This document shows positions 2,721 through 60,063 of a DNA stretch of 64,000 bases, one piece after another. The stretch comes from Eledone cirrhosa (taxonomy: Eukaryota), in assembly GCA_964016885.1 (NCBI GenBank), contig OZ024753.1, forward strand, positions 34,100,001 through 34,164,000, given 5' to 3'. Every line of letters starts with the position of its first letter. The first letter of the stretch is position 1. The notes below the pieces were generated by a model, which was given only the letters and a program-made list of their open reading frames with translations, was not told the origin of the DNA and did not search any database. The translations under genes and the position numbers were made by a program.

Positions 2721-4035
2721 ATACCATAGCAAATTAAGAGAACTATAGACATCGTTTGAACCGAAGTTAAAACAAAAACAAATGGTGCGTGTCTTGCTTA
2801 GAGACAACAACAGAAAAACTATTGGCAGAGTTCGAATTTGTTAACCTTTTGGTCATTAGTTCCAACTGTTTAAACTACATCACACATAGAAATATATTTA
2901 TTATGAATATACAGGATATCTAAGTCGGCAATATGTCATCTGATGGTATTTGTGTCTAAACTGATGAAAGAATATTCAAAAACACTGGCAGGCATTATAT
3001 AAAATAGACTCGGAATATAATACACTGAATTGGATTTCATTTATACGAAATTGATTGGATGCCAATGTCGAATGTAAGTAGCAGCATGACAGGCTCTAAG
3101 TATTTGATTGATTGCGTGTGTATGTGTATGTGTGTGTGTGTGTGTGTGTATCTGTCTGTGTATCTGTAAAGTAGAAAGTGAGTCTATGTCTCTGTACGTA
3201 TTTGTCTATATGTGTTTTGTACGTGACATGAAATATCTGTTGAAAATATAAAGAGCGGAATACAATAAAACAAAGGCTAAACGGTATGCTGTTTTTCTAT
3301 ACAGAAGAATTAAAACACTCGCCAAATGTTAGTGACTCCGTCTCGACTAAGTATGGAATGGGTGGCAGGAAAATTGATGGAAAATCGATGAAGTATTTTA
3401 TTTCCTACTGATTGGTAGATTGTTTTGTTTTCTATTCATATTATTTTATCTTTCTTTCAATTATCATCCCGGTCGTGATCAACATCATCACTACCAACAT
3501 CATTATCGTCATCGTCAGTATTACGAGTGTGCTGATGAAACACTCCATTGAAATTTGATAGACGAGAACTGGGTGGAGGTCCGTCGCATGCAAATGTGTC
3601 TGTATGACAACTTTATGTGTATGTGCGTGAGTACATATTTGTCATCGATACATTCATATACACATATATATATATATATACAAACATATATATATATATA
3701 TATATATATATATATATATATATATATATATATATCACAGAAATGGAATGTATTGGACATATAATATCCAATAAATTCAATTCGTCGCAACACCGATTCC
3801 CTTTTTTTCTGTGATATCATACTCTGCTCTATTAGCGCATCGAGTGCTCATACGGCCTACCACATCCAGACGCTTTGAGCATCCAACACCAATTATATAT
3901 ATATATATATATATATATATATATATATATATATATATATATTTATATATACGTTATTCCGGGTTGAATCGGAGGTAACCACAGTAAGTAAGGTACTCAA
4001 TACATAGCAGAGTATAAAAGTTTTAATATAGAAGA

Positions 4036-4083
4036 GATTCTACAGGACTAGAACTGTTTCATTCTTTAGAAATCATCAGGAAT
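4036..4083 (-). ncRNA. Type I hammerhead ribozyme motif
   Basis: Reverse complement reads attc-CTGATGA-tttctaaagaat-GAAA-cag(ttctagtc)ctg-TA-gaatc. Confidence 0.8.
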
Positions 4084-4132
4084 GATTCCTGATGATTTCT
4101 AAAGAATGAAACAGTTCTAGTCCTGTAGAATC
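4084..4132 (+). ncRNA. Type I hammerhead ribozyme motif
   Basis: gattc-CTGATGA-tttctaaagaat-GAAA-cag(ttctagtc)ctg-TA-gaatc; stem I gattc/gaatc. Confidence 0.82.
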
Positions 4133-4754
4133 TCTTCTATATTAAAACTATATATATATATATATAAATTACTTCAATTGTTGTCCACACGAATCAAAAT
4201 TCTTACTGAAGAGATGGTCTCGGTCGAATTAAAATTCGATTTAACCCTATGTTACCTGCCCTCTCTCTGCCCACAAGTCAGCCTTTTTTTGTTAGAATTC
4301 TCTCCTTTACATATATAGAATTTAACCATAAAGAAATTAATTAATTGAGGTTTTTAAGTGTTCCCTACCCTTAGAACTCTCTACACAATCACAATCAAGA
4401 TTCTCCTCGGAAGTAACTCCATTACAGTCAGTATGACAGACTGAATTAGTTGGCGTTAGACCCAACGAAAGTTTATTATCGGCGTAATGCCACTGTTTGT
4501 ATATATATATATATATATATATATATATATATATAAGAAAATATATATATATAAATATATCTCTTCTTTTCCTTGTCTCTCTATCTCGCTCCGTTGTTTT
4601 TCTTTACATACATCTCTTCATCTTCTTCTTCTCATCTTCGTTTTTCTTTCTATATAACTGTCATAACAGTTTCACTACCAAATCAACTTTTTAAATGGAA
4701 GTTGCATTATTACAAGGTATGTCACTAATTATTTATAAAACAGCTTATGTATTG

Positions 4755-57200: not shown

Positions 57201-58092
57201 TGTGTAATCAAATTAATTTAGTTACAATGTTATGTAGCCTCAGGTCAAATCTATCTTTACCAGCTATTACATTTTATATATTTTTACAAAATCTCTAAAG
57301 AGCTGTGAATATAAATACAATTTTAATATGTTTTAATGGAAACATAATATATTTTAGTTGATTCTGAATCAACATTGATTTGAATAAAAATATTAAATTG
57401 GTGAGCTTATTGCTATTAGGTGGTACGAGAAATTTCATATAAACAAAAACAAAATCGAAATAAATTCAACAACCTACGAAAATGACATATATATAGCAAA
57501 TATATCCAATGACAATTGTTAAATCTGTTAACACATTGGTAGTACAGCTGGTTATATACTCTATCTTGTAATTTAAAAGATTGTAGCTTAAAACATGGAA
57601 GTTACATTAAGGACATATTTTAATAATGAACATAATCTTCATTATACATCTTCATATTAAAAGTATAGATGCAAAAATGATGTCATGCTTACACTGCAAA
57701 ATGTAAACATAAGTCATAGAATTCAATCAAAATTTAAACTTAACATCTAACAATATATGAAAGAATAACATGCTCATGTATTACTGATTTTTAGTTACAA
57801 AACATAAGGAGGTCATTATATCCAAGTTCGCATTGTACTAGAGTAAATACAATAATAGAATTTTCAGTATGTGTATAGTGAGGGTTATAACAAGGTAAAC
57901 AGTTGTTTTCTTTGTTGAGAAATTTGTTACAATTGGTTATAATCAAGTGCCAGATTTAGGAAAAATGAGGCTCTGTGCTAGTTAAGTTATGAGGTCACAT
58001 TGAACGTTTGATATTTAAAAAACATTTGAAAAGTTTATCGTAAAAATTTTTTTGGCAGGAAGATAGGAGCCCTAGCCAACAGGGCCCTGTAC

Positions 58093-58321
58093 TTAACCCT
58101 TTAACATTTACATTACTCTATATATACTATTGTATTTTTGTGGTAAAGGCTTTATCTTACATAATTATCTCACATAATATTGAATCTATGAGCTTTTGAT
58201 ATTATTTATTTTGAGAATAAAACCTTTACATCAGTAAAAGTGGCCATTTATGGTCAGTTTGAAAAGAAAGAAGTGAGATAATTCTGGCCGGATATGGCCA
58301 GTTTAAATGCTAAAAGGTTGA
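58093..58321. mobile_element. piggyBac-type MITE
   Basis: TTAA-CCCTTTAACATT ... AATGCTAAAAGG-TTGA; an intact right end aatgctaaagggTTAA occurs in the partial copy at 60713-60780. Confidence 0.7.
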
Positions 58322-60063
58322 GCATACCTAAGCACAATGGTAAATCCAGCATTGGTTACAATGAAACTCTTCCTTAACAAAAGAATTAATGTTATCCAGC
58401 TCAGATTTCATATTTTCAGCTGCTTGTGTAAATGCCAGTAAAATGATGTACTGTTCCTGTTGTCAGTGATTACATGTTTTACATAGATGGGGTCCCATAT
58501 AACTCAATCTAATGGTTATATGATCAATACAATTAACATAAGTAGCAGTTCAATGTAGAGGTACTTGGTTATTCAATTGAATAAGATTTCTGACGATAAA
58601 AAACGTCACAGGAATACCACCTTAATTTATTTGGATGAGTATTTTACAGTGGAACGCCATTACGGCATTTGAACAATTGCTTAACAAATAGATTGCAATC
58701 GTGGGTTACAAGAAACAAAGCAAAGAGTTTTTAAATGAACATCATTTTGATTGAACAAGAAAAGACTATAAAAATATATAATGAAGAACCATAAATATGG
58801 GTAAGAAAAAAATTAGTTTCATTTCCTCTGCTGACAATACCAGACAAAAAAAAACGATACAGAATTTTTGTGTGGAATATTGTACGATCATTTTGTATCA
58901 TTATCATTTACCAAAACACACATACATACATACATACATACATATATACATATATATATAAATATATATATGTGTATATATATATATCATATATATATAT
59001 ATATGTGTATATATATATATTTATGTATGTATGTATATATATATATATATATATATATATATATATATATATATATATATATATATATATATACACATAT
59101 ATATTAGTAATAATAACTACAGAAAAAAAATCAGAGAGGACTCAATATATGAAATATAAATATATTATATATATATGTGTGTGTGTGTGTGTGTGTGCAT
59201 ATATATATATATATATATGCATATATATAGTCATATATAATATATGTATATAATTATATAAATATAAATACACACACACATCTATCTATATATATACATA
59301 TATATATATATTCTGCTTTTTGTTTTTGTATATATTACATAAAAAAATATATTTTTATGATAGTTGTTCTTATGAAATAGTTATGAAATGCTTTTTTTTT
59401 TAAATATATCAATATAGTTATTTTTTTATACATTAATTATTTTTCGTATAGAAGTCATTTGCAACGAACTTTCATTGTTTCCAATATTACACTAGACAAT
59501 TGAAAGACAAGGAACTATTAATAATCTTCTGTGAAGAAATTATATAAAATATATATATGAAAATTATTTTTCTTTCTCCCAATTAGGAACGTGTTCCTTT
59601 TTTAATGTTCTTTGTGTTTCTCTAGTTATTTATCTTGGAAAAAATAAAAGTTGAAGTGTTTATGGCCGATTAATTCATAAGAATGATTCGTTACATGATA
59701 TGATAACAGAAAAGAGCAACAGAAATTGGAAAGACTTTTTGTGAACTTCGTTATGCTCCATTATAACATAAACTTGTTTTCTTCTTGTTTCCCATACATG
59801 GGCATGCAATACATTCACTAAATATTCAGACACACATTCACAAACACACGTTCATATATATATATATATATATAAAATAATAATAATAATAATAATAATA
59901 ATAATAATAATAATAATAAAGGTTGACGGATCCAGCATATTTATCAATGCCAGTACCGGTTGTATCTCAGCGCACTCAATGGGCAATGTAAGATACATTA
60001 CCAGAGTATACACATAGTTATTTGCCTCATCACAACACACGTAAAACGGGTGCCTATAAGGTT

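Follow-up and report, generated by a model that had tools for sequence, protein, structure and literature searches.

The insertions of Penelope-like elements (PLEs) have been marked for about two decades by an inverted arm and an optional tail, for which there is no agreed cause. Self-priming (PMC3846280), resolution by the endonuclease (PMC8557442) and two unexplained starts of the reverse transcriptase (RT; PMC11167929) have been offered so far in the sections of these papers covered here. In the Hydra clade of PLEs (Craig et al. 2021, PMC8557442) the protein carries DKT and RW(K/R) motifs, a CxCX5C linker, CxxC and CxH, as well as a GIY-YIG domain at its C terminus. For PAc, a Poseidon element, Frangieh et al. 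(2024, PMC11167929) found that the two strands of the target are both cut and extended, that two internal starts bound the tail, that initiation takes place on uncut RNA and that hammerhead cleavage is not needed. In the twin priming of LINE-1 (L1; Ostertag and Kazazian 2001, as given in the review PMC9148063) cDNA is primed on the RNA of the element by the two strands of the target, and an inversion results. The non-LTR (long terminal repeat) retrozymes (PMC7229834; bioRxiv 10.64898/2026.07.22.740005) are non-coding tandem units with a type I hammerhead, and their mobilisation by PLEs has been proposed. The present study deals with a bulged hairpin in PLE insertions of Eledone cirrhosa, whose genome measures 3.0 Gb and is rich in TA microsatellites. 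The window is a stretch of 64,000 nucleotides of this genome (assembly GCA_964016885.1, contig OZ024753.1, positions 34,100,001 to 34,164,000, forward strand), and it holds an autonomous Hydra-clade element, here called family A, together with a number of related short inserts. Our analysis indicates that the hairpin is usually present twice (H1 and H2) between the hammerhead and the ATG, and that each copy likely holds the RT on the RNA and sets an internal start of copying, a reading to which we give a probability of roughly 0.7.

A preliminary description of the window had listed twelve ACTC..GAGT stems, and all twelve are present on the strands and at the positions given below. The bare motif was rejected as a signal: ACTC-N(3-90)-GAGT occurs 40 times in the window against 33.3±6.0 in 100 block shuffles, 12 of which reach 40. 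The real feature is stricter. The ACTC..GAGT motif is the lower stem of a predicted bulged hairpin, made up, in order, of RYTC, an upper stem (variable and covarying) with its loop, two bulged nucleotides on the 3' side (mostly UU) and GARY. Read by eye, ten of the twelve sites fit this form and two (11895 and 44050) fit it in part. It had been said that the closing stem persists while the loops vary, and this is so, with loops ranging from 3 to 70 nt, but the signal also includes the upper stem, the bulge and the 3' flank. A strict descriptor of the hairpin matches 8 times in the window against 1.4±1.3 in shuffled sequence (reached in 0 of 100 shuffles), a comparison which is circular since the descriptor was drawn from these sites. 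The genome sample consisted of 1.30 Mb of tiles chosen by position plus the window, 1.364 Mb in all; one tile, C7:30000001-30040000 (L069-L072), is 40 kb of satellite with 20% GC and no (TA)8 runs, unlike the other tiles, and was excluded from the hammerhead and tail-cluster counts. In this sample the strict descriptor gives 127 matches, against 30 for the mirror-image bulge and 26 after shuffling; the bulge sits on the 3' side of the sense strand. A covariance model recovers 8 of the 12 listed sites and nothing else at E up to 3; four of the eight had served to train it, and a fifth has the same sequence as one of these. In Rfam none of the best 150 of 275 matches for the window is at the gathering score, and nearly all are microRNA models on microsatellites; a 257-bp repeat unit (see below) and eight metagenome loci gave chance matches only and no curated family.

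Support from outside the genome came from metagenomes, where an alignment-based scan found 77 loci in 67 clusters (a scan with a single protein gave no matches). The descriptor matches 18 of 33 metagenome Hydra leaders, with control values of 1 for the reverse strand, 2 for a bulge on the other side, 1 for a swapped stem, 0.8 for shuffles and 0.5 for open reading frame (ORF) sequence. There were 38 hairpins in sense against 1 in antisense and 0.75 in ORF controls. When 53 hairpins of 33 clusters were anchored by sequence only, the first upper position was paired in 52 of them with the 2-nt 3' bulge in place, and the other registers tried gave Watson-Crick pairs in at most 18 of 53; the bulge letters were TT in 39, TC in 9, TA in 4 and TG in 1. 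For H1 alone, the three upper positions form Watson-Crick pairs in 25/26, 21/25 and 14/20 cases against permuted means of 12.7, 9.5 and 5.8. Covariation was also examined in an alignment of 29 of 31 short-loop metagenome hairpins and four window sites: RNAalifold, given no structure beforehand, arrives at this one, and two-sided changes number 44 against 15.8 in shuffled alignments (0/500), statistics that ignore the kinship of rows. Swaps are also seen in the lower stem, in the form of G-C, A-U and U-A at the closing pair, GTTC/GAAC and GCAC/GTGC. The GTTC/GAAC form, noticed earlier as apparently compensatory, is real and family-wide: a pattern which also allows GCTC/GAGC has 855 exact matches, with GCTC in 0 of the 100 listed, and a second, different family (tail cluster 18) also carries it. 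Two unconstrained flank positions 3' of the stem are T in 96% and 98%, which suggests a sequence-specific reading, and TAT or ATA directly precedes 41 of 51 hairpins. These compensatory changes span elements with proteins 29-52% identical to that of family A. With strong comparative support, the hairpin is a real, conserved and covarying cis-element of a known clade, apparently undescribed: a description of the twin bulged hairpin was not found in the literature searched, most subscription papers and the Repbase reports lying outside that search. The main text of PMC8557442 has no occurrence of the word 'hairpin', and the passages covered mention no conserved leader hairpin.

The second hairpin had been missed in the preliminary description. 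Among 26 metagenome leaders 16 carry two hairpins, 54-82 nt apart, and H2 lies 15-60 nt upstream of the ATG. In the E. cirrhosa genome the exact two-hairpin pattern has 59 matches against 0 for the reversed pattern, and these include the families of the window sites 42768, 4869 and 27277. Of the two-hairpin loci fetched, 9 of 30 continue into a Hydra ORF and 21 have no ORF within the next 1.4 kb. In the family of site 3820 H2 lies 3 nt past the tail end and is followed by an ORF; in a 485-bp tandem family with the GTTC/GAAC form the second stem is TCTC/GAGA. Read from these sequences, the tail is H1 together with its spacer, and its end would be set in the same way as that of the arm, a second hairpin lying just beyond it. 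The earlier proposal that arms lack the tail by an internal start did not include this second site.

The position of the ends was followed with two-hairpin leaders of 8 families as reference. Among the 209 ends abutting a microsatellite, 198 lie 0-12 nt before H1 (89) or H2 (109), with modes at 5 nt and 3 nt respectively, and 11 lie elsewhere; read-through matches and 30 ends without a microsatellite junction were left out of the 209, and one query that starts with a microsatellite was dropped. Ends of family A, counted apart, fall before H1 in 12 cases, near the tail end in 17 and elsewhere in 2. In loci combining one leader with its 3' end, the end is before H1 in L141, L143 and L165 and before H2 in L149, L150, L151, L161, L171 and L175. 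Inverted pairs without internal (TA)10 have one end of each class in 71 cases and like ends in 3 (8 pairs with internal (TA)10 were excluded and 12 more had an unclassified end). Among the 71 mixed pairs the longer arm is the tail-less one in 25 and the one with the tail in 3; 31 have arms of equal length and 12 were not assigned. Among the short tail arms, many end at the H1 site or within it. Of 153 junctions, 140 have 2 nt or more of TA in common with the element, the mode being 3 nt. Four tail-only pieces, each from a different Hydra-type family, are attached directly to ends of other elements and have their start at the H1 site, 0-10 nt before H1 (L249 near 1500, L253, L254 and L255).

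A set of inserts was also collected blind to the motif, as inverted repeats with one end on a microsatellite, which gave 103 arm-plus-tail inserts in 37 tail clusters. The hairpin is present in 50 of the 103, and in 40 of these it starts 5-8 nt past the arm end, so that the distance from hairpin to arm, another check asked for earlier, is fixed and short. With the strict test 13 of the 37 clusters pass against 2 on the reverse strand and 0.6 in shuffled sequence, and two of the 13 probably pass by chance. The two largest negative clusters (10 and 6 inserts) adjoin Nematis-like and Neptune-like ORFs, as judged by linker motifs. By these assignments the arm-plus-tail layout is common to three clades in this genome and the hairpin is not. 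The Nematis-like and Neptune-like tails (for example L001:7832 and L024:9079) are AC-rich and 40-60 nt long; they follow the two-end layout, lack a GCTC hairpin and are nearer to the description of PAc. Three different tails are joined to the same Nematis-like end. A GCTC hairpin after such an end had raised the possibility that the hairpin extends beyond the Hydra clade; this was rejected, as the hairpin belongs to the tail of a separate family with 112 matches.

Family A allows the whole arrangement to be followed in the window. Its ORF (8476..10284, minus strand; RT and C-terminal GIY-YIG, with motifs as in section 11 of PMC8557442) is 5'-truncated, and full copies elsewhere in the genome encode 713 aa from the ATG with YRDD and YIG motifs. 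The protein has DKT, the clade's change from DKG (DK[TS] is present in 51 of 52 metagenome loci), a CxCX5C linker (which 48 of 57 metagenome loci also have), CxxC and CxH instead of CCHH, and an RWR variant of the N-terminal RWK motif. By this motif set family A is a Hydra-clade PLE, and both the canonical hammerhead in the pseudo-LTR (pLTR; predicted, by motif) and the insertion into (TA)n are found. The length from pLTR to pLTR is 4.7-6.3 kb, above the <3 kb typical of the clade, because of a microsatellite-rich block inside. This block of 2-3 kb of TA/TG in the 3' region is seen at 5950-8350 of the window and in the full-length loci L081-L088, and a splice-donor-like GTGAGT at about 8390 (minus) precedes it, possibly marking an intron. 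A search of the ORF against Pfam returned no family. The predicted protein model is confident (predicted local distance difference test score, pLDDT, 92.8), its top three structural matches are telomerase RTs (E 7e-10, template modelling score, TM, about 0.33), and the model locates no binding site. The sense 3' end (pLTR, 5568..5908, minus) forms a 341-nt inverted repeat of 99.7% with the inverted arm at 10284..10627 (plus). A predicted type I hammerhead lies at 5581..5631 (minus) in the sense pLTR, the motif being also scored in copies of the family, and at 10561-10611 in the arm. H1 occupies 5541..5559 (minus) within a tail that runs from 5567 to 5493; the arm ends 5 nt before H1 and has no tail. 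Arms of family A extend 40-70 nt past the H1 site, through the predicted hammerhead cut site.

These products are probably accounted for, and most simply, in the following way. The element protein would bind H1 and H2 on uncut RNA and its endonuclease would cut both strands of the (TA)n target. Each target 3' end would pair over about 3 nt with the UAU or AUA immediately 5' of a hairpin; H1 would serve one strand and H2 the other. The two cDNAs would stop at variable points and join via short complementary ends, and the product would have a tail-less inverted arm and an arm with H1 and spacer, that is, the tail. Non-coding families could be copied because both hairpins are kept. The cutting and extension of both strands and the two internal starts of PAc are a precedent. 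It is a more tentative proposal, to which we give a little less than even odds, that a protein dimer sits on the two hairpins of one RNA and primes both cut strands at once, one per hairpin.

Several explanations can be set against an internal start on RNA. The hairpin could act on DNA, a single cDNA from the tail end folding back and the endonuclease recognising H1 in the intermediate and cutting just before it. Craig et al. (PMC8557442) attribute the tail to endonuclease-mediated resolution, Frangieh et al. (PMC11167929) cite the tail of Drosophila virilis Penelope as needed for recognition of plasmid DNA by the endonuclease, junction palindromes were read as self-priming by Arkhipova et al. 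(PMC3846280), and arms are equal in 31 of the 71 inserts. A fold-back of the tail strand cannot yield a longer tail-less arm, yet this arm is the longer one in 25 inserts against 3, which calls for a separate cDNA copied from RNA. The ends before H2 follow the same rule, and since H2 is in neither the tail-bearing product nor the (TA)n target, it would have to act on the template; the bulge, moreover, keeps to the sense strand's 3' side (127 matches, the mirror form having 30). We consider an action on DNA unlikely. A similarly low weight is given to hairpins that direct RNA cutting a few bases upstream of each, with ordinary priming at the two new RNA 3' ends. This predicts the same two classes of end, and these RNAs do carry ribozymes and protein-assisted RNA cleavage was reported for PAc (PMC11167929), but separate pre-cut RNAs are expected to pair randomly and not 71 to 3, numerous tail arms end at the H1 site or within it, and in PAc the internal start is on RNA left uncut.

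The hairpins could instead control translation or transcription of the ORF, with ends arising from chance TA pairing in AT-rich leaders. The closeness of H2 to the ATG and the TAT or ATA before 41 of 51 hairpins would fit with this, but tandem families without an ORF (257-bp and 485-bp) keep both hairpins, 21 of 30 two-hairpin loci lack an ORF in the next 1.4 kb, and the ends avoid other TA-rich spots of the same leaders (11 of 209 elsewhere), which leaves this role improbable. Chance or common ancestry without function is very improbable. The bare motif is not enriched in the window and most hairpins fold no better than shuffles; against this stand the compensatory changes across proteins only 29-52% identical to that of family A and across loops of 3-70 nt, and the ratio of 38 sense hairpins to 1 antisense, by which this explanation is already largely refuted. 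The internal start of reverse transcription put forward in the preliminary description is the best reading of a conserved covarying element at a fixed distance 3' of the arm end. A number of observations weigh against it. Standalone folding is weak, with z < -2 in 3 of 11 listed sites folded, and just 13 of the 37 motif-blind clusters pass the strict test. Single hairpins are found in 6 of the 26 metagenome leaders and none in 4, and H2 was looked for in the families of sites 59972 and 11895 and was not found. The H2 position of family A, four bases past the tail end, has a different 4-bp stem, GCAC/GTGC, with no upper helix (137 matches). The families of this genome lie on one side of a single branch in a protein tree made with no named reference elements and no outgroup, and the swap from G-C to A-U may be one event. 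Three families supply most of the end counts and a few rows look duplicated. All mapped ends are DNA products in the genome and not mapped RT starts. The start of PAc lies inside an AC-rich stem loop called non-homologous to the target, whereas a short TA pairing is inferred here.

The twelve sites of the window make up about nine families, 3992 and 5539 being one and 4869 and 27277 another, and sites 3820 and 43488 are 68% alike. They had been called unrelated, a term that has to be given up, as they are diverged members and non-coding partners of one clade (Hydra), distant relatives of each other. A short palindromic insert of family A lies at 3947..4149 (minus), with arms at 4022-4146, hammerhead cores at 4079(-) and 4089(+), H1 at 3995-4013 and a tail to 3947. 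The family B insert at 26972..27368 (plus) is also palindromic, with arms at 26972-27269, cores at 27068(-) and 27180(+), H1 at 27278-27297 and a tail to about 27368; the other H1 of this family, at 4870..4888 (plus), follows a core at 4763. H1 at 3821..3845 (plus) is in a truncated Hydra-family insert (3736-3895) whose copy has no hammerhead and whose tail ends 3 nt before the H2 of its family. Its relative at 43492..43516 (minus) has a UA bulge and is a copy without a hammerhead core. H1 at 11525..11610 (plus) has a loop of about 70 nt and a hammerhead at about 11325-11459, with its core at 11332, and in relatives of this element the inverted arms end 4-11 nt before H1. The H1 at 11896..11921 (plus) is imperfect, its first upper pair being mismatched, and has no relatives in the 1.36 Mb. 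The weakest site, 44051..44062 (minus), has only a minimal stem and no upper helix; a hammerhead core (44201) precedes it by 139 nt, and the 1.36 Mb contain no other copy. H1 at 59974..60007 (minus) lies downstream of a core at 60169; at 60230-60300 (minus) there is the tail-less end of a further Hydra family, in other copies of which H1 apparently has a 1-nt bulge. The claim that the hairpin lies just beyond the end of the inverted arm holds at six of the twelve sites (3992, 5539, 27277, 3820, 42768 and 37908); site 11895 has a decayed short arm, and an arm was not seen at 4869, 43488, 59972, 44050 and 11524.

The remaining listed sites belong to non-coding repeats. The commonest family has the 257-bp tandem unit with both hairpins and no CUGANGA; in the window it supplies a palindrome-plus-tail insert at 42716..42882 (minus), with H1 at 42770-42793, and, beyond the listed twelve, another at 41362..41563 (minus) with H1 partly deleted. 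At L216:1206-1790 the unit has only the 3' half of a hammerhead, and an internal palindrome, 55-70 nt upstream of the H1 site, is the point at which most inserts of the family fold. The 485-bp family is non-coding, with a type I hammerhead and 10 units in one array, as in retrozymes, and its insert in the window is at 37642..38010 (plus), with a hammerhead at 37776 and the compensatory H1 at 37909-37944. The array (L246) starts with an inverted partial copy and ends before H2, and is retrozyme-like with a PLE insertion signature. A further insert outside the list (38416..38709, strand not assigned) has a long tail-less arm, a core at 38605 (+) and a short inverted tail arm cut inside H1. The predicted hairpin has no need of a hammerhead, because the 257-bp unit has both hairpins without CUGANGA. 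The position downstream of a hammerhead was borne out in part: a CUGANGA...GAAA core lies upstream in the same element at eight of the twelve sites, the exceptions being 3820, 43488, 42768 and 11895. A relaxed hammerhead descriptor gives 76 cores (a stricter one only 3); in 614 kb it matched 58 times, and 11 times once that sequence was shuffled. Minimal hammerhead families without stem III and without the hairpin, at 63159 (+) of the window and in L020, L039 and L040, are probably of another PLE clade. The window also contains a near-perfect palindrome of about 300 bp (12843-13142) with a variant hammerhead-like core, in which a tail or hairpin is not clear, and a two-ORF non-LTR retrotransposon (17423-22720, minus) with a 501-aa zinc-knuckle ORF and a 1112-aa endonuclease-RT ORF.

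A twin hairpin at a fixed offset from both ends gives a hypothesis that can be mutated and rescued. The cis-signal ties non-coding hammerhead repeats to one autonomous clade and is a simple marker for annotating the ends of Hydra-clade elements. If the two hairpins are indeed a paired RNA address, this would be the first defined cis-signal and would fully explain both the inverted arm and the one-sided tail, and it would provide a portable tag of about 100 nt making any RNA a template for a telomerase-related RT. The RTs of PLEs are the closest retroelement relatives of telomerase, so the way in which they grip an internal template is relevant to how RNA recognition by telomerase arose. In telomerase, with its protein-bound RNA stems, and in hepatitis B virus, with the bulged stem-loop epsilon, a structured RNA likewise places the RT at an internal template. 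Copying begins at the bulge of epsilon, with a protein as primer; the boundary element of telomerase ends copying and does not start it. In Rfam the 257-bp unit and eight metagenome loci matched neither of the two by sequence or by family.

The elements described here share with the Hydra clade of Craig et al. (PMC8557442) the hammerhead in the pLTR, the (TA)n targets and the inverted arm with a one-sided tail; they differ in tails which are mostly 60-130 nt in this genome against 30-40 nt there, and in the unit of about 5 kb of family A, owing to its microsatellite-rich block. Among the six consensi of File S7 of that paper examined by eye, the hairpin is seen in Hydra-2_Amil, Hydra-2_Ajap and Hydra-1_Ajap (two copies), which come from coral and sea cucumber. 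Hydra-1_Crog has an imperfect form of it, and in Hydra-1_Amil and Hydra-1_Obim it was not seen whole. The 485-bp family fits the non-LTR retrozymes, whereas the 257-bp family has both hairpins and no CUGANGA; a cis-signal is not named in the parts of PMC7229834 and bioRxiv 10.64898/2026.07.22.740005 covered here. In L1 the first primer is placed at the poly(A) and the second at a variable internal place (PMC9148063), whereas the two sites described here are fixed, lie 55-130 nt apart, each with a hairpin after it, and give rise to an inverted duplication. With PAc there is the likeness that two fixed sites bound the tail, which here are genomic ends. PAc starts copying in an AC-rich stem loop of its ORF, and the site that it binds was narrowed down no further than the first 172 nt (PMC11167929), whereas the present ends lie 2-12 nt 5' of the RYTC stem of two GC-cored bulged hairpins in a non-coding leader, with one arm per site. 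Tails and two internal starts were known already (Frangieh et al. 2024), and what is new here is apparently the twin hairpin.

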